28,516 nt of DNA from Verrucomicrobiota bacterium (GTDB taxonomy: Bacteria > Verrucomicrobiota > Verrucomicrobiia > Verrucomicrobiales > DEV007), in NCBI GenBank assembly GCA_045046875.1, contig JASFYY010000070.1, positions 1 through 28,516 on the forward strand, given 5' to 3'. Below are positions 20,559-28,516 of this stretch, piece after piece; the first letter of the stretch is position 1, and every line of letters starts with the position of its first letter. Below the pieces are notes generated by a model, which searched no databases, was not told the origin of the DNA, and worked only from the letters and a program-made list of their open reading frames with translations. The position numbers were made by a program, and so were the translations under genes.

Positions 20559-21884
20559 TCAAGTTATGATCTCGCGCGCCACCTTGCCACCTTCAGCTCC
20601 AGTAAGACGATGATCCCGCCCCGCATGAGTGTATTTCAACTCATTGGAAGACAGCCCCATCAAATGTAAAATGGTCGCGTGCAAATCACGGAAATGCATT
20701 TTGCCATCCACCGCACGTGAACCGGTTTCATTGGTTTTGCCATGCACAAAACCACCTTTCACCCCCCCGCCCGCCATCCAGAAAGTGAAACCATTGGCAT
20801 TGTGCCCCGTTTCATTTTTTCCATTACCCGGGGTCAGTCCCGGACGTCCAAACTCCCCGCCCCACACCACCAGCGTTTCCTCCAGCATGCCGCGTTGATC
20901 CAGATCCTCGAGCAGGGCCGCTATCGGCGCATCCGTTGCTGCGCAGTTGGCTTCCAGATCCCGACGATGGTTTTTGTGTTGATCCCAACTGCCATGATTC
21001 ACTTCAATAAAGCGCACCCCGGCCTCGGCAAATCGTCGTGCCAACAAACACTGCCGACCAAAGTCGGTGTCCTTGCAGGTGCCTACTGTCTTTTGATTCC
21101 CCACCCGGTAGCGCGCCAAAGTAGCCTTCGATTCCTTGCTCAAATCCAATAAGTCAGGTGCCGTCATCTGCATCCGGAAACCCAGCTCCATCGACTTGAT
21201 CACCCCGTCGAGTTTGGCATCACTCGGTCGCCCCTTGAGATGATTGCGGTTCATCACCTGCAAAAACTCCAACTGCTTGCGCTTGGCAGACAGAGGCAAA
21301 TGATCACTGTTCACGTTATTGATCGTAGCGCTTGCCATTTTCTCCCCATTCACCCCGATCGGCGTGCCGCTATAAATCGAAGGCAAAAAGGCCGATGAAT
21401 AAGCCGATGATTTCGAAGTATGGATACTGACAAAACCCGGCAAATTTTGGTTCTCCGTGCCCAAACCGTAACTGACCCAGGCACCCATACTCGGTCGCTT
21501 GCGCAGACGGTCACCGGTGTGCAGTTGTAAGTTCGATTGGGCATGAATCCCGGTGTCGGCATACATCCCGTTGAGCAGACAAAGACGGTCCGCATGTTTG
21601 GAAACCTCGGGCATCAACTCGGATATCCACAAACCGTTTTCACCGCACTGACTGAATCCCACCACCGAGCCCGGATGCGCGGTTTTCCCCGTCTGCGGTT
21701 TGTAGTCAAAAGTATCGAGCTGAGCCGGACCGCCACTCATGCAAAGAAAAATCACCCGCTTCGCCCGCGCCGTAATCGGAGCCGGGCGATCCACCAGATT
21801 CGCCTGCGCCAAACCTGAAAACGCCAAATAACCAAAACCACAGGAAGCACCCTGTAGCAGTTCACGACGGGAAATATTATTCAT
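20559..21884 (-). CDS. DUF1501 family protein with Tat signal
   Basis: SRRELL Tat motif, [49 protein letters not shown] and WGGEFGR. The start is ATG 21884 or 21893. Confidence 0.9.
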
Positions 21885-21922
21885 ACGCCTCATTATAAAA
21901 TTTTGACCCAATTATCAAATTT

Positions 21923-21946
21923 GTAGGGCGAGCGCTCCGCTTGCCC
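21923..21946 (+). repeat. GTAG-type REP palindrome
   Basis: GTAG followed by the stem-loop GGGCGAGCG-CTC-CGCTTGCCC in the PSD1-DUF1501 spacer. Confidence 0.55.
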
Positions 21947-21978
21947 GGATTTATATAAGCTTAGCTCCTCAGTCATAC

Positions 21979-24309
21979 TCAATCAATATAACGAAATTCA
22001 TTAGTCACCAACAAGGTCTGACACAAACTCGCCCAGGCTTTTTCCTTGGAATGAAGCTCCGCCTGGGTAAGCTCGACCAATTCAATCGCCCGGTAAAGTT
22101 CTTCAGCATCGGGATCTCGGTTCAGGGCACTGCGATAAGCCTGTTTGACCCTTGCCTGATCATCACCGGGAACTTCCGCCAGAATTTTACGGGCAAATTT
22201 CCCCGCCTGCTCGATCACAAAAGCACTGTTGAACAAAAATAGCGCCTGACTGGGCAAGGTATTGACCTCACGCTGCCCAAGCACGCTGGTGAAATCCGGC
22301 AGATCAAAGGAGTTCAACTCCGGCGGCGGGGAATTCCTCAGATAACAAAGGTAAATACTACGGTGATTGCTCGTTTGGTGCAGATTACCCGCCAGATTCA
22401 CCAGAATCGGACGGTGACGAATAATAGATCCCTCACCCGGTTCCAGATCAAGCTGACCCGTGACCTTGAGCACGGAGTCACGCAGCGATTCGGCATCAAA
22501 ACGCCGGCGGCTGTGCCGGGTCAGCCATAGGTTTTCGGGGTCTGCCTCAACCAGCCTTTTGTCCGCTTCACTGCTCAACTGGTACGTCCGGCTCAAGACA
22601 ATTCCGCGAATCAAACTTTTCACCGACCAATCATTATCGACAAATTTGCTCGCCAGATGATCGAGCAGTTCACGGTGCGTCGGACGCTCACCGTAAACCC
22701 CGAAATCATTCGGCGTGCCGACGATGCCCTTGCCAAACAAATGCAACCAGATCCGGTTGGCCATCACCCGCGCGGTCTGCGGATGCCCACCACTGGTCAG
22801 CCATTGCGCCAGTTGCAGGCGCCCACTTTGCTTGGCATCGATTTTGATCGCCTCTCCCGTATTGCAAGCCGTGAGAAATCCCCTTGGCACACTTTCTCCC
22901 AACTTTTTGGCATCCCCCTTGATATTGATCTTGCAGTCAGCCGGTTTAGCGCGATCCCGCAGCCCCATCGCCAGAGGTGTGCCCGGCGCCCACTTTGATT
23001 TTGGAATGGCTTTGGGTTTACCGGTATTGGATTCCGGAACCAAAACCGTCTCCACAAACCCGGCGGGAGGCAAAACCTTAGCCGCGCTTTTTAATACATG
23101 CAGATCCGTCGGCGGCGCCGTCAACTTTTCATTCCCCGCCACGCCCCACAGCGTCTCAGAACTGGTGAAGTATCCAGCCAAAGCATAATAATCACGAGTC
23201 GGAATCGGATCAAATTTGTGATCGTGACAGCGCGCGCAAGCCACACTCAATCCCATAACTCCCCGGCTCACCACATCGATCTGGTCCGCCACCACATCCA
23301 TCGCAAAATTGTTATTCATCGCTTTGGCAGGCTTGGAGGTCAGCGCCAGAAAACCCGTCGCGATCAATTGACGGTCCCGCTGCTGGTCGGAGCTGCTCGG
23401 CAACAAGTCACCGGCGATTTGCTCGGTCAAAAATCGATCGTAAGGGGTGTCTTGATTAAACGATTCAATCACATAATCCCGATACCTCCACGCATGAGGG
23501 AAAGTCGGATTGCGGCTCAGGCCATCATTGCCATTGGATTCCCCATAACGCACCACGTCCAACCAATGCCGCCCCCAGCGCTCGCCAAATTGCGGCGAAG
23601 CCAACAGCTCATCCACCAATCGCGCCACCGCTTGCTGACCGTTTTTTTCATAGTCCGCGGCAAAAATCTTCATCTGCTGCATGTCCGGCGGCAAACCGGT
23701 CAGATCAAAATACAAACGTCGAATCAGCACCGCCGGACTGGCGTCGCGGGCAGGTTTTAATTTTAAAGCTTCGATCTGCGCCAATACAAAGCGATCCATC
23801 CCAGAGCGCGGCCAGTCGACCGCCTTGACCTCTGGAACCATAGGTTTTTTCACCGCTTCAAACGACCACAACTCGCCCTCTTCATAAGTCCTGCCAGCCA
23901 CTTTTTTCACCTTGCCCGAGCGCGGATCCGGCGCGCCCATTTTCACCCACTGCACAAAATCGCTGATCACTGCCTCGCTCAGTGGTTCGTCCGGCGGCAT
24001 TTCCAAATCATGATCCCACTTCAAAGCCTGGATCACCAAACTGTTCTGCGGTTTCCCCGCCACCACCGACGGCCCCGACTCCCCGCTTTCCATCATGCCC
24101 GAACGGGTATCCAGCAGCAATTTTCCACCCAATTTCTCCGCCCCCTCCGAATGACACTCGTAACAACGATTGACCAGCACCGGACGAATCTTGTTCTCAA
24201 AAAAAGCCACCCCCGCCTTGTCCGCACCCTGCACGACCACCTTCTCCCCACCATAAACGGCAGAAAAAGCACACACCAACACAGCAGCAATGGGGAAATG
24301 AGAGTTCAT
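21979..24309 (-). CDS. PSD1/PSCyt (planctomycete cytochrome c, DUF1549, DUF1553) protein
   Basis: [53 protein letters not shown] and [11 protein letters not shown], with two CxxCH motifs. Start moved to the ATG at 24309, which gives a signal peptide. Confidence 0.92.
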
Positions 24310-24523
24310 CCAGGGGGGGATTTGCCCCGAAAAATACCCCACCCCACCCAAATCGCAACCAAAAGCCTCCTTCATCATTCTTCACTCCTTACTCAACATT
24401 CGATATTCCCTCACTCCCCTCCCTGATTCTTACCAGTCCCGAGGACGCGCATAGGCGCCAGGCTATGCAATAAATTCAAAATACAGGCACATCACAAGTG
24501 TTTGATCACGTGACAGTTATTAC

Positions 24524-24707: not shown

Positions 24708-25139
24708 CTGTTTGCCAAACGCCTATGATCGGACGCAGAACCAGTGCCCTCTTATTATTATCAGTGAAAATTTGACTCCAAACAGAATGTTCCGTCTGTC
24801 TCACTCCGTTCAGCTGTGCCATCAATGGTTTGGAAAAATATTCCTGCCCATCAGCTCCTATTCCACCCAGCCTATTTCCCCCTTATCCTTGTTTCCTAGT
24901 GTCCATCTTGACTCGACATAGCTTTAGCGACGGCGGTTAGGGGTCCTCTTCGCCTCTTGAGTCCCGCTTTCACGGCATTTCCACGCTTCTAACGTGACAT
25001 TTCCCGTTTTTTTTAGAAAACTTTCTAAGAAACCTGCTGCCCGCGGGTCTTTCCCCTGAGAGGATGATTTATCGTGCATCAAAACAACCCAGCCCAACGG
25101 CTCCATTTTTCAGCGTTCCCGACTGAATCAAATAGCACC

Positions 25140-25688
25140 ATGCCCGTGTCCAGTTCTCCCAGCCCAGCAGCCAAACGCGGCCCAAGCCTAACCTTGCGCG
25201 AGCTGTTTGAGACCGAAGAGACACCGCTGTTACGCTACGCTTTCTCCCTCACCGGGCGACGCGCGATCGCCGAAGAGATCGTGCAGGAAGTTTTTCTCCA
25301 GCTCCACACCCATTGGGATGACGTCGAACAACCCCGCGCCTGGCTGTTCCGCTCCGTGCGCAACCGCTCTTATAATCACCAGCGCAAACACAAAAACGAA
25401 ATCCTCACCGATGAAGATCAATCCGGCTCCACCACCGACGATCAAGAACACGCCCCCGACGCCCTCCTGCTGCGTATGGAAGCCGCCGGTTACCTGCGCC
25501 TGATCGTGGAAGAGCTCGACGAAGTCGATCGCCAACTGATCGAGCTTAAATATTTCGATGACCTCAAATATCGCGACATCAGCGACCAAACGGGACTCAG
25601 CATCAGCAACGTGGGTTATCGCCTGCACCACATTTTAAAAGAGCTGGCAGAGAAATTGCGCCAACTCGGAATCGACGGAACGTCATGA
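25140..25688 (+). CDS. ECF (sigma-70 group 4) RNA polymerase sigma factor
   Basis: Region 2 LLRYAFSLTGRRAIAEEIVQEVFL...AWLFRSVRN and region 4 LKYRDISDQTGLSISNVGYRLH. The start is ATG 25140 or GTG 25074. Confidence 0.92.
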   Translation: MPVSSSPSPAAKRGPSLTLRELFETEETPLLRYAFSLTGRRAIAEEIVQEVFLQLHTHWDDVEQPRAWLFRSVRNRSYNHQRKHKNEILTDEDQSGSTTDDQEHAPDALLLRMEAAGYLRLIVEELDEVDRQLIELKYFDDLKYRDISDQTGLSISNVGYRLHHILKELAEKLRQLGIDGTS

Positions 25689-28516
25689 AGGAAGAACCAC
25701 TACATCCATGGATCGAACCCGAACTCGAAGCGCGCATCGTCGCTTTGGTGTTAGGCGAAGCGTCCGACTTCGAAAGCGAAGAACTGGAACGCCTGATCGA
25801 AGAAAAAGCGGAACTGGCGATGTTCAAAAAACGCATGCAGGCAGTGCATGGCTTGTTGCGTGAGGTAGCGACCGGTGAAAGTCTGGAAGAGGAAAAAAAC
25901 TGGAAACTGGGCGATGAAAAACGCCAGGCGCTGCTGGCGGTGATTGATGGGGAGGAGAAAAGCACGGCAACAAAAAAAGAGGCACGCAAAGATCCAGTAA
26001 GTTTGAAAACCGCGCCCCTGAAAGCGACCTCTTCGCGCCCACATGAAAAAAGCAGCGGTAAAAAAGAAAAAGCTTCCGCACTAAGCATAGCCATCATCGT
26101 GCACTTGGGTCTGGCTGCCTTACTGATGCTTTATGTCGTTTACAGCCCGGCACCCCAATCTCCACAGTTTGCCATACAATCGAGAGCTTATTCTGATTCA
26201 GACGACATCTCCTCGGAGAAAGTAATGAAAATGCAAAAGAGCAGACGCGCCCCTACCTCCCCCGCCCACCGCTACACCATCAACGAAGCAGATATCGTTA
26301 GCCGCAGCCTATCCTCCGTTGGCCCCGCAGATGCTGCATCGGTAGCTAAGACTGACAGCCGAAAGGAATCACGTACGTCCCTATCTTCGATCCGTGGCAA
26401 TTTGGCGAGATACTCTCCCACCGCTAAAGAGCCAGCCCTTATCGAAAGTAAACTTAAAAACATCATCCTGCCTAAAGTAGAATTCCAGGATACACCCTTA
26501 AAAGAAGCGCTCGCCACCCTTCAAGAACAAAGCGCAGAGTTTGATCGGCTATCGTCGAATCCTGCCACTAAAGGCGTCAATTTCAACCTGAGTGAATCGG
26601 TGAAAGGAGCCGAAAATCTTGGCATCACCATGAAACTTTCAAATGTTCCTTTGGTCACAGCACTTAAATACACATCATCCTTGGCAAATATGAAATACAA
26701 AGTGGAATCCGGGGGAGTAGACATTGTTCCTTTGTCCTCTCCCTCCACTGATCTTCTCACCACAACTTACAAAGTATCTCCCTCTTTCATGGCTGCTACC
26801 GCTGAAAACAACGCAGATATAAACGCTGCAGCCGACCCTTTTGCAGAACCAGAGGAAGAAGCTTCCACACTGAAACGAAGAAGAACCGCCAAAAATATCT
26901 TAGTGGAAGCGGGAGTCACTTTTGCCCCTGGCGCGAGCGTCATTTATAATCCTGAAACTTCCGAACTGATCGTTCGCAACACACAAGACCAGCTGGAATT
27001 GGTGGAAGCCTATAAAGATTCAATCAAGGGCAAATCCGAGGGACTTTCTTTCCCGGACATGAATGACAACACAGACGCCCCTGCACAACCCTTCGTCATC
27101 AGTTCATTCGCTTCTTCGCCAATAGCCATCCCTGAGCTTGACCAGGAAGAAAGCGTTGATGACGGCTTGGTTTCGATGTCATCAGATACAACAGCTGGAT
27201 TCGGAATAGCGACAGCTTCTAATGGCTCTGTGATTCTCAAACCCGAAGAGGGGAATACAAACTCTCTACTGAGAAAATCAGTTTCCCTCGACGAAATGTC
27301 AGACACAAAAAGCCCCCACCTGGGACATGGGCAAACCACCCCCATCACCATACTTGGAGAAAGTTCAAACGTGCCACAAAGCGCGCCGCTCATCGCCAGT
27401 GCAGGCGCTGTCAACGGCGGAACCGTGACCACTATTGGTGAAACGACAGAAATGGTCACTATCAATCCTGAGATGGAGGTAAAGCAAAGGACAAGGCTTA
27501 CCTCCAGATCAAATGACGGAGCCACCGGAGGAAACATCTCCCAGCTTGGCGAGTCAAAGGTCACAGTCGCCCGCGAAGCTTCCATGGATGTGAGTGGCAT
27601 GACCGGAGGTGGGCAAGTCAATATCGGCGGCGGGTTCCAAGGAAATAACGAACAACAAAGAGACGCTAAGTTAAGCGATGGTTTTGAAACCAAAAATGTA
27701 GTGGACGCGCTCCCACCCCGACCTCAAAAAAGCAAGGCCCTGAAAACTAAAACGAAGAAAAAAGCGAACCGGGCCAACGCTAAGTCAGAATTGAAATCGC
27801 ACGGAAATACCTACACCTTAGCAAAAAATAATGCCGGAGCCCTTCGTGGCGCTGGATCCCCTACTATAAAAGGCAAAGTCGAACTGCTTAAAAAAGGCAA
27901 GCAAGTAAGCACGAATTCAACAGCCGGACTTTACGCCAGCACAACTAACGGCCATACCCGCGCCAAATTTCTTCAACAGGTGGCAGCTGGATGGGAATTA
28001 CCTGTTCCCACTAGAACTAGAGGTGATATGGAAATCGGCCCCAATAAACCAGTGGGAAGTAAAAGTGATGCCGAAGCCGCCAATAACTCTAGAGTCTCTC
28101 GAACCAATCAATCCCGCACTATAAGCCCCAGAGCCAAACTCAAAAAACAAACTGTAAGCACAGCCCCAAAAGTAACTGCCCGCAACGGTGGCCGTGTTGC
28201 GATTGAACAAAAACGGGGATTGATCAATACAAAGGATTACGCCCCCCCTCAAATCCCTATAGATATAAACAAACAGACGATGGACAAAATATATCGCCGG
28301 GCTCCCGAAGTGGTCGGAGGAGGTCGTCGTTCCGGCACAACAAAAACAGACAAAATCGAAGTCACCGCAGGTGCCCCGATCACCCTTGGATTTGTAAAAG
28401 CTAAGAAAAAGCTTAGTGCAAAACCCTCTGCCTCCGCATCCATCCAAATCAAAAAATCTCCCGTCCCCAGTGGCCTCAACGAAAAATCTGCAATAACAGA
28501 AGCTTTCTCCACCTTC
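25685..28516 (+). CDS. Large membrane-anchored putative anti-sigma factor with a mosaic extracytoplasmic region and a probable YfbK-type vWA module; 3'-partial (at least 944 aa)
   Basis: ATGA overlap with the sigma stop codon, and the frame is open to the window end when translated by hand. N-terminus MKEEPLHPWIEPELEARIVALVLGEASDFESEELERLI; TM ALSIAIIVHLGLAALLMLYVVY (26078-26143). It ends GLNEKSAITEAFSTF, resembling the FSTFS start of YfbK/vWA-associated domains. Confidence 0.85.
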   Translation, partial: MKEEPLHPWIEPELEARIVALVLGEASDFESEELERLIEEKAELAMFKKRMQAVHGLLREVATGESLEEEKNWKLGDEKRQALLAVIDGEEKSTATKKEARKDPVSLKTAPLKATSSRPHEKSSGKKEKASALSIAIIVHLGLAALLMLYVVYSPAPQSPQFAIQSRAYSDSDDISSEKVMKMQKSRRAPTSPAHRYTINEADIVSRSLSSVGPADAASVAKTDSRKESRTSLSSIRGNLARYSPTAKEPALIESKLKNIILPKVEFQDTPLKEALATLQEQSAEFDRLSSNPATKGVNFNLSESVKGAENLGITMKLSNVPLVTALKYTSSLANMKYKVESGGVDIVPLSSPSTDLLTTTYKVSPSFMAATAENNADINAAADPFAEPEEEASTLKRRRTAKNILVEAGVTFAPGASVIYNPETSELIVRNTQDQLELVEAYKDSIKGKSEGLSFPDMNDNTDAPAQPFVISSFASSPIAIPELDQEESVDDGLVSMSSDTTAGFGIATASNGSVILKPEEGNTNSLLRKSVSLDEMSDTKSPHLGHGQTTPITILGESSNVPQSAPLIASAGAVNGGTVTTIGETTEMVTINPEMEVKQRTRLTSRSNDGATGGNISQLGESKVTVAREASMDVSGMTGGGQVNIGGGFQGNNEQQRDAKLSDGFETKNVVDALPPRPQKSKALKTKTKKKANRANAKSELKSHGNTYTLAKNNAGALRGAGSPTIKGKVELLKKGKQVSTNSTAGLYASTTNGHTRAKFLQQVAAGWELPVPTRTRGDMEIGPNKPVGSKSDAEAANNSRVSRTNQSRTISPRAKLKKQTVSTAPKVTARNGGRVAIEQKRGLINTKDYAPPQIPIDINKQTMDKIYRRAPEVVGGGRRSGTTKTDKIEVTAGAPITLGFVKAKKKLSAKPSASASIQIKKSPVPSGLNEKSAITEAFSTF

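Follow-up and report, generated by a model that had tools for sequence, protein, structure and literature searches.

We analysed the 28,516-nucleotide contig JASFYY010000070.1 of a Verrucomicrobiota bacterium (source genome G000, contig C70:1-28516; this whole stretch is called the window, and its end is the end of the contig), in which a gene for an extracytoplasmic function (ECF) sigma factor (182 aa; 25140..25688) is followed by an open reading frame (ORF) for an anti-sigma factor anchored in the membrane (25685..28516; 944 codons, open to the last base). Both lie on the forward strand, as do all window features below unless a strand is given. Profile and BLAST searches showed that the ectodomain of this anti-sigma factor is a mosaic of diverged, in-frame pieces of the cell's own envelope proteins. 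An ECF sigma factor paired with a vWA/DUF3520 anti-sigma factor is a known kind of system. Most anti-sigma ectodomains are dedicated sensor domains; here, and in a family of at least 215 proteins, envelope proteins of the cell itself supplied the pieces from which the ectodomain is built, apparently renewed by lineage.

Comparison of the anti-sigma ORF with its own genome (tblastn) gave 12 matches at E<1e-3 outside its own contig, and 11 reversed or locally shuffled versions of the ORF gave none. The strongest matches were to two secretins of ~900 aa on contig C89, the closer of which is called sec1 here; it is part of a pilus-type cluster, PilM being encoded upstream, and the own secretin at C89:47743-50466 carries PF00263. 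A profile built from 16 secretins recognised three pieces: the N0-N1 pair at aa 246-452 (26420..27040; profile positions 272-490, independent E-value (iE) 9e-72), a piece named PRE at aa 749-798 (27929..28078; profile 229-278, iE 2.5e-7) and the start of the secretin beta-domain at aa 825-899 (28157..28381; profile 627-688, iE 3.3e-5; BLAST 42% over 48 aa), the last also being found in the same-genus relative G003b (8e-8). Their order is not native, since PRE, which precedes N0 in secretins, lies ~300 aa after N0-N1 here. The profile matched none of 108 control rows (18 reversed and 90 shuffled) and found at least one secretin piece in 13 of the 18 family rows. The three diverged secretin pieces that the original prediction had recognised by eye were thereby confirmed, as was their partly non-native order. 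PF00263, the full secretin channel domain, was not detected in the anti-sigma factor, which has just the 75-aa piece.

PRE consists of a helix and a WELPVP segment, is 76% identical over 37 aa to the cell's own sec1; the G000 and the G019 copy each share with their own sec1 even its lineage-specific tail. The N0-N1 piece folds confidently in AlphaFold 2 (AF2; predicted local distance difference test (pLDDT) 85.7, 30-row alignment), and its top Foldseek matches in the PDB were the secretin N0-N1 domains of PilQ, XcpQ, EscC, InvG, MxiD and GspD, followed lower down by the GspC-GspD complex 3oss and the FecR-like anti-sigma factor 4m0h. The N0 domain also serves another membrane sensor of this genome, a BlaR1/Peptidase_M56 signal transducer (L032; G000:C49:61319-63013, minus strand) with a tandem pair of N0 (STN-like) domains at its end, which are 37-39% identical to aa 248-349 of the anti-sigma factor. 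Separately, three tandem genes at G000:C106:13663-16774 (minus strand) and one at C158:6963-8114 (plus strand) encode exported proteins of ~350-380 aa, in each of which an N1-like domain is combined with a short region of secretin type (with a PF00263 match in the C158 protein); they resemble 'mini-secretins'.

The second source was TpsA, the filamentous-haemagglutinin type of adhesin. A profile built from five TpsA N-termini placed aa 572-663 (27398..27673, pieces T2 and T3) on profile positions 488-580 (iE 4e-14) and aa 697-737 (27773..27895, piece T1) on positions 248-288 (1e-7), the reverse of their order in TpsA, and had no match in 108 controls; a third short TpsA piece, at aa ~601-625, came from BLAST alignments. 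T2 corresponds to the end of the two-partner secretion (TPS) domain and T3 to a segment ~250 aa further downstream in TpsA. The TPS secretion domain PF05860 itself had no match in the anti-sigma factor, which yielded only the pieces at profile positions 248-288 and 488-580. TpsA genes of 1292-2222 aa with a TPS domain occur in the same-genus genomes, and three anti-sigma blocks match these closely in permuted order. Searching aa 521-744 with phmmer against 1.84 billion representative sequences returned 12 matches only, and five of the 11 scanned with Pfam had a TPS domain, the match lying downstream of it. The cell's own TpsA (C134) was considered as donor and rejected as the source, the alignment (29% over 121 aa uncorrected) being non-significant with composition correction; this protein is 34% identical to the TpsA of G005, and of the closer G005/G003-type TpsA nothing but 37 aa at the edge of a contig is present in G000. 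Two to three permuted TpsA pieces, as predicted, were thus recovered by profile and BLAST, with the correction that the closest TpsA proteins are those of relatives and that the own assembly has only a distant one. As a side observation, aa 671-738 (27695-27898, overlapping T1) gave 19 weak matches to P0001 (summed E 4e-25, 28% identity), a protein of 2721 aa with 21 CBM_X2 repeats; a shared beta-strand motif may account for them.

The block spanning the transmembrane (TM) helix and its juxtamembrane part (aa 118-200; 26036..26284) is 43-53% identical (tblastn, E 1e-5 to 9e-17) to the cell's own TPR-TM paralogues on C32 and C4, which also have block K (aa 466-520; 27080..27244). In these paralogues the TM-proximal block is directly followed by block K, so the N0-N1 pair looks like an insertion between the two. 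The linkers between the pieces are polar, with 27-30% K+R. The paralogues themselves (G000:C4:11044-14658, plus strand, and G000:C32:4083-6353, minus strand) have a TPR N-terminus in place of the sigma-binding domain; a vWA-like end is present in two of them, which are arranged in tandem, and a prenyltransferase/cyclase-like end in one.

We then compared the origin of the pieces across lineages. In the N0-N1 module tree (39 rows and 232 columns; anti_G024, anti_G013_u1 and anti_G017 are long-branched and without reliable placement), the anti-sigma copies of G000 and G003 grouped with four sec1 orthologues of their genus, g1 (99/98), the second unit of G013 grouped with G013's own secretin (80/93), and two units in an unrelated membrane protein of G007 grouped with G007's own secretin (98/99). 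The approximately unbiased (AU) test, run after dropping six long-branched or partial rows, rejected the placing of the G000 and G013 anti-sigma modules in one clade (p 0.0049), and it did so also with the G007 unit added (p 0.0036), a grouping named after inspection of the tree. Tree and test together show that the module sequences came from the secretins of their own lineages more than once, and the predicted self-capture in more than one lineage therefore stands, a single origin being rejected. The G007 protein (L008:358-3678, minus strand; G007:C11) is a multi-TM protein of at least ~1100 aa with two [PRE-like + N0-N1] units and is not an anti-sigma factor, so the secretin cassette has been captured outside anti-sigma genes as well.

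With composition-corrected BLAST, the own secretin was the best match for pieces of G000, G019, G020, G013, G017 and G016, and the part of the secretin held (TPR, PRE, N0-N1 or beta-domain start) differed by member. Other envelope proteins are represented as well: comparison of the G019 middle region with its own genome gave pieces of TpsA (two), a ShlB-type TpsB, BamA, a secretin and a vWA paralogue, and that of G009 matched Wzz/PCP twice, with the order swapped, and a 1566-aa ORF twice. Among 120 database members, secretin pieces were present in 35 and TpsA pieces in nine (iE<1e-3, own protein included), with none in the 120 reversed sequences, and the pieces were non-collinear in nine of the 16 members that had several. 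Close relatives differ in what they hold, P0014 having no secretin piece, P0015 N0-N1 only and P0016 four pieces. The order T3-PRE-T1 is common to G003b (genus g1) and G019 (genus g15), so some pieces are positionally old, with a sequence that follows the own secretin. These comparisons support the capture of fragments into the ectodomain, which would be a natural case of in-frame gene-fragment capture shaping a receptor.

The copies are old and not assembly chimeras, as each of the four stretches detectable at the DNA level is 71-77% identical to sec1, with saturation at synonymous sites. Comparison with G003 gave ratios of nonsynonymous to synonymous substitution rates (dN/dS) of 0.22 for the N-domain, 0.14 for N0, 0.21 for N1, 0.30 for the beta piece and 0.40-0.55 for T3, PRE and T1. 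As judged from these ratios, which were 0.14-0.55 on nine of 10 blocks, the anti-sigma gene is under purifying selection; F1 was the sole block above 1 (1.8, 52 codons). Block F1 (27304-27460, aa 540-592) has a low dS of 0.107, which may reflect recent exchange together with diversifying change, or noise. The alignment of G000 and G003b consisted of conserved blocks and unalignable linkers, with block-wise presence or absence and a swapped T1-PRE order. A collinear, conserved middle region, which had been named in advance as speaking against the mosaic, was thus not what the orthologues had, given their block indels and swapped order.

The sigma ORF runs from an ATG at 25140, a start codon kept in G003, to a TGA at 25686-25688, and the ATG of the anti-sigma ORF is at 25685, which makes an ATGA overlap. 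Pfam detected Sigma70_r2 (E 1.5e-12, aa 44-107) and Sigma70_r4_2 (E 3.6e-12, aa 140-191; numbering of a 204-aa frame) and no sigma r3 or r1 model at E<=1 in this frame; sigma2 and sigma4 domains alone are the layout of ECF (group 4) sigma-70 factors. The protein is 46-90% identical to 11 sigma factors of the family. The N-domain of the anti-sigma factor, its putative cytoplasmic sigma-binding part (aa 1-100; 25685..25984), is 37-90% identical in 15 long ORFs of relatives, all of them located directly behind an ECF sigma gene. It contains no Cys, hence no ZAS-type zinc motif HxxxCxxC, and has no match to zf-HC2/RskA or any other Pfam family at E<=10. No Pfam family, including the STN, Secretin_N, TPS and haemagglutinin models, was matched by the whole anti-sigma ORF (E<=1) or by its four segments (E<=10). 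Hydropathy showed one strong hydrophobic segment at aa ~131-153 (26075..26143; KD19 maximum 2.46), with a K-rich stretch before it.

The model of the complex between the sigma factor and the N-domain scored 0.66 (median of three runs), compared with 0.02 for the best of three controls. In the benchmark, the counts of which apply only roughly to our own alignments, 116 of 157 solved complexes attained that mark, as did two of 215 mismatched pairs. The runs agreed in at least 84% of contacts, with a partner pLDDT of at least 78. In the model the N-domain sits between sigma2 and sigma4, with contacts in sigma residues 19-56 and 112-173; the pass may reflect likeness to already solved ECF/anti-sigma complexes. 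The modelling supports the N-domain as a cognate sigma-binding anti-sigma domain, ATGA-coupled to the sigma gene. The pairing claimed in the original prediction was accordingly upheld by the overlap and by the complex model, and the single TM helix and the ORF of at least 944 aa reaching the edge were found as described, by hydropathy and by the 944 open codons.

The C-terminus is cut by the contig end, and relatives indicate what it would be. In 12 of the 16 relatives' ORFs scanned, vWF_A, VWA and YfbK_C lie at the C-terminus, the other four being contig-cut or an upstream frame. The same-genus homologue G003:C8 aligns with aa 778-944 and then runs into vWF_A, VWA and YfbK_C; vWF_A is at 169-247 of the G003:C8 frame, and the terminal 'AFSTF' of the anti-sigma factor matches its start. 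Because G003:C8 aligns and continues into these modules, AFSTF is placed ~10 residues into vWF_A (PF12450), the first residues of which occupy 28487..28516. This agrees with the YfbK-type vWA end that the original prediction named for such proteins. The missing C-terminus was sought in G000 with the G003 C-terminal frame, and only distant vWA paralogues (25% identity) were found. The G003:C8 paralogue (L015:2177-5292, minus strand) has a different TM segment, is without N0, block K and T2, and has a frameshift near aa ~715, for which an assembly error and a pseudogene are candidates.

Searching a large protein collection with the N-domain gave 215 proteins of 519-1652 aa, nearly all with vWF_A, VWA and YfbK_C. 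Where named, they belong to Verrucomicrobiales and Planctomycetota and are annotated merely as vWA or 'vWA domain protein', 'ChlD' or hypothetical; cultured Planctomycetes are among them, so experiments are feasible. Conservation across the family is confined to the N-domain and the vWA end, and the middle region, about 500 to 1300 aa among relatives, is highly variable in content. The expectation had been that both ends are conserved and that the hypervariable stretch between them has its best matches in own envelope genes, different ones in each lineage; the G019 and G009 middles bear this out.

A conserved motif, TTCTAAG-N17-GTCT, lies upstream of the sigma genes of the family, with the genus form TTCTAAG-N15-GGGTCT; the putative ECF-type promoter of the sigma operon in the window is TTTCTAAGAAA-N12-GGGTCT (25022..25050). 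In the own genome the loose pattern gave four sites and a degenerate scan 21, two of them perfect: one at the sigma operon and one 52 nt upstream of a 2003-aa alpha-2-macroglobulin gene (G000:C68). The encoded protein has MG2, bMG3, A2M_BRD (E 2.4e-5), A2M and bMG10 domains and a CSEQ at residue 1467, CxEQ being the thioester motif of alpha-2-macroglobulins. The motif was kept upstream of the alpha-2-macroglobulin gene in four of four loci of the genus, in which spacer and flanks diverge. A strict 28-nt pattern, searched in five same-genus genomes, occurred only at the G003 sigma operon and at the alpha-2-macroglobulin genes of G003, G004 and G005, and its backward controls gave no site in these genomes. 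G001 and G002 have neither an alpha-2-macroglobulin gene nor a motif site, and the G004 sigma promoter is masked by N's. In G017, of another genus, the single extra site lies in front of an alpha-2-macroglobulin gene from a different subfamily (22% identical). To judge from these promoters, the regulon of the sigma factor probably comprises its own operon and a periplasmic thioester alpha-2-macroglobulin. The literature searched contained no sigma or anti-sigma regulator of bacterial alpha-2-macroglobulins, for which the present pair is a candidate.

Some motif sites of other genera led elsewhere. A 2089-aa ORF behind a motif in G010 was examined as an alpha-2-macroglobulin and rejected, having no likeness to one by Pfam or BLAST. 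The genes downstream of extra sites in G009 and G019 encode small exported proteins without a recognised family; in the two paralogous genes of G009 (L110:310-1500 and L114:1066-1500, both minus strand; C193 and C264) the -10 element of the motif abuts the ATG, and their transcripts may be leaderless.

We consider it possible, though somewhat short of probable, that the anti-sigma factor works as a protease bait or decoy, in which clipping of the ectodomain releases a sigma factor that induces a protease trap. The mechanism is one that we infer from the anatomy of the protein and from the promoters; the promoter common to the sigma operon and the alpha-2-macroglobulin gene speaks for it independently, if only indirectly. 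The cytoplasmic N-domain would hold the sigma factor; on reaching the periplasm, proteases able to attack the secretin, TpsA and envelope proteins like them would clip the ectodomain as well; the shortened stub would become a substrate of a site-2 protease; and the released sigma factor would activate transcription of the thioester alpha-2-macroglobulin, itself a protease trap. In the RseA/RseP system, shortening of the periplasmic part of the anti-sigma factor licenses site-2 cleavage, RseP acting as a size filter, and in alpha-2-macroglobulins the bait region is a protease-sensitive stretch that triggers the response when cut. A Peptidase_M50 gene, a candidate site-2 protease, is present in the genome (C61; 166 bits). 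The mosaic and the predicted two-operon regulon together give a testable hypothesis of how protease attack on the envelope might be sensed.

A wider claim, which we hold to be doubtful, is that a whole PVC anti-sigma family carries an evolving array of mimics of machines exposed to the periplasm, namely secretin, TpsA/TpsB, BamA and Wzz, with a cut by a foreign protease that has breached the outer membrane inducing the alpha-2-macroglobulin trap. As parts of that same claim, the decoys would track their parent proteins by repeated capture, conversion or selection, the attackers would be predators, competitors or hosts, and the cut would trigger intramembrane proteolysis. RsgI of cellulolytic clostridia and the 'integrated decoys' of plant NLR receptors are sensors that contain modules of guarded proteins, with lineage-specific repertoires, and the anti-sigma family would, if the claim is true, be a bacterial counterpart of that principle. 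These are conceptual analogues and no homology is claimed: RsgI and the NLR integrated decoys integrate whole folded domains, whereas mostly scrambled sub-domain fragments are found here.

Comparison with known signalling systems showed partial likenesses. The RseA-DegS-RseP pathway shares the shortening of the anti-sigma factor followed by site-2 cleavage, for which an M50 protease gene is present here. Its signal is the binding of outer membrane protein C-termini to the DegS PDZ domain, whereas no DegS-type input is known here and the ectodomain itself carries the copies of envelope proteins. Among the near known systems is ECF289, in which the anti-sigma factor has DUF3520 (YfbK_C) joined to a von Willebrand module (Casas-Pastor et al. 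2021, PMC7826278). According to the ECF289 passages of that article, the anti-sigma gene is directly downstream of the ECF gene and has the DUF3520 and vWF end (PMC7826278); the likeness here rests on gene order and on the C-terminal modules of relatives, the own ORF ending ~10 residues into vWF_A. Those same passages describe no middle region, self-derived fragments or alpha-2-macroglobulin target (PMC7826278). The FecR/PupR regulators of cell-surface signalling (PMC7186176, PMC11637429) are likewise single-pass anti-sigma factors with a periplasmic STN/N0 fold, activated by regulated proteolysis. The present protein differs in having no FecR domain (PF04773; Pfam, whole ORF and four segments) and no gene for a TonB-dependent transducer beside the pair in the window, and its N0-N1 comes from the own secretin and is followed by scrambled fragments and the vWA end. 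RsiV resembles it in that the anti-sigma factor of sigmaV directly senses the attacking enzyme and induces a counter-measure, and differs in that lysozyme is bound by a dedicated folded domain and not by a decoy array, with lysozyme resistance, not a protease trap, as the output (PMC5014341). Neither mosaic anti-sigma ectodomains nor a link between ECF sigma factors and alpha-2-macroglobulins was described in the literature searched, the supplements of PMC7826278 being outside its scope.

Several results weigh against the protease-bait mechanism. The N0-N1 pair is well folded and under the strongest constraint of the gene (dN/dS 0.14-0.21), which fits a module for binding more readily than an expendable bait. 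With the 16-secretin profile, no secretin piece was found in five of the 18 family rows and in 85 of the 120 database members. The vWA-YfbK_C end, the best-conserved part of the ectodomain, is left unexplained by a bait and may be the true sensor. The mean pLDDT of 39.6 that AF2 gave after N0-N1 (aa 457-944), which with the K/R-rich linkers makes this stretch look unfolded and so speaks for a bait, comes from a 4-row alignment, in which disorder and scarcity of data are not separable, and is no proof of disorder. The regulon has its own difficulties. In other genera the motif was absent upstream of the alpha-2-macroglobulin gene in eight of eight loci, a count that excludes the truncated locus of G012 (L102), and the loose pattern was not enriched in five other genera (12 sites compared with 18 for the backward pattern), where the extra sites precede unrelated genes or genes without an assigned family. 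The alpha-2-macroglobulin link is thus confined to genus g1 and G017, and G005 has the motif and an alpha-2-macroglobulin gene with no sigma gene found (assembly 95% complete, 420 contigs). Comparison of the anti-sigma factor with either alpha-2-macroglobulin showed no sequence similarity (best E 0.5).

The confident fold of N0-N1 and the strong purifying selection on it lead to another explanation, somewhat unlikely in our view, in which N0-N1 and the short pieces bind the partners of their parent proteins. Possible partners are the ring of secretin N-domains, pilus alignment proteins and the POTRA domains of TpsB; the anti-sigma factor would then report the state of assembly of the machines, or free partners, with the alpha-2-macroglobulin as one among the outputs of a regulon for envelope integrity. 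Regulators of the FecR type sense a TonB-dependent transducer through its STN domain in this manner, and the N0-N1 fold is like that of the secretin periplasmic domains that bind inner-membrane partners. Such a sensor would fit the sources, which are secretion and assembly machines (secretin, TpsA, TpsB, BamA and Wzz), the location of sec1 behind PilM in its pilus-type cluster, and the lineage-specific tail of the own secretin that PRE keeps despite synonymous saturation, as would be expected with a co-evolving partner. It fits poorly with the remaining pieces, most of which are scrambled fragments of 40-90 aa from beta-barrels and beta-helices that are unable to fold alone, and with the family as a whole, for which the module is dispensable, as the G003:C8 paralogue lacks N0 and P0014 the whole module. 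Nor is a protease-trap regulon explained by partner binding alone.

The variability of the middle region between relatives, with block-wise indels and swapped block order even within the genus and only the N-domain and the vWA end kept family-wide, is what would be expected of a tolerant, disordered spacer in which fragments without a role are gained and lost by illegitimate recombination or gene conversion, vWA-YfbK_C being the real sensor. The relaxed constraint on the short fragments and the ratio above 1 of block F1 agree with this, as do possible structural variants, hinted at in metagenome contigs by two weak joints under the 31-letter rule, 27642>27951 (X1, side 30) and 27645>27953 (X8, side 27). 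We nevertheless judge it somewhat unlikely that the patchwork is neutral, as envelope and secretion proteins recur among the sources, the own secretin above all, in at least six lineages; the fragments have stayed in frame with dN/dS <1 long past synonymous saturation; the T3-PRE-T1 order is common to two genera; and the 76% identity of PRE to sec1 is unexpected in a random spacer. A tolerant linker prone to fragment capture had been the alternative raised in the original prediction. Were the region a spacer only, it would still be a clear case of recurrent intragenomic fragment transfer.

That the gene is a chimeric metagenome assembly or a decaying pseudogene, as its place at a contig end with the C-terminus missing, the frameshift in the G003:C8 relative and one unbridged junction might suggest, is extremely improbable, since chimeras are expected to be near-identical to their source, 944 codons are open and under purifying selection, the same layout occurs in the independently assembled G003 and in P0016, and independent contigs cover most of the gene. 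These contigs, from four runs of three studies, bridge 25786-27187, 26681-27562, 27613-27895 and 27953-28516; the T1 to PRE junction, 27895-27953, was bridged by none of the independent contigs listed, and several bins were uncovered in some runs. A search for chimeric assembly, the other check named in the original prediction, therefore found none, most junctions being covered. One contig of run X8 extends 54 nt past the window end.

Just upstream of the sigma operon, no link to which was seen, the opposite strand (20559-24378, minus) encodes a PSCyt1/PSCyt2/PSD1 protein of 799 aa and a DUF1501 protein of 450 aa, a gene pair that is common in PVC bacteria.

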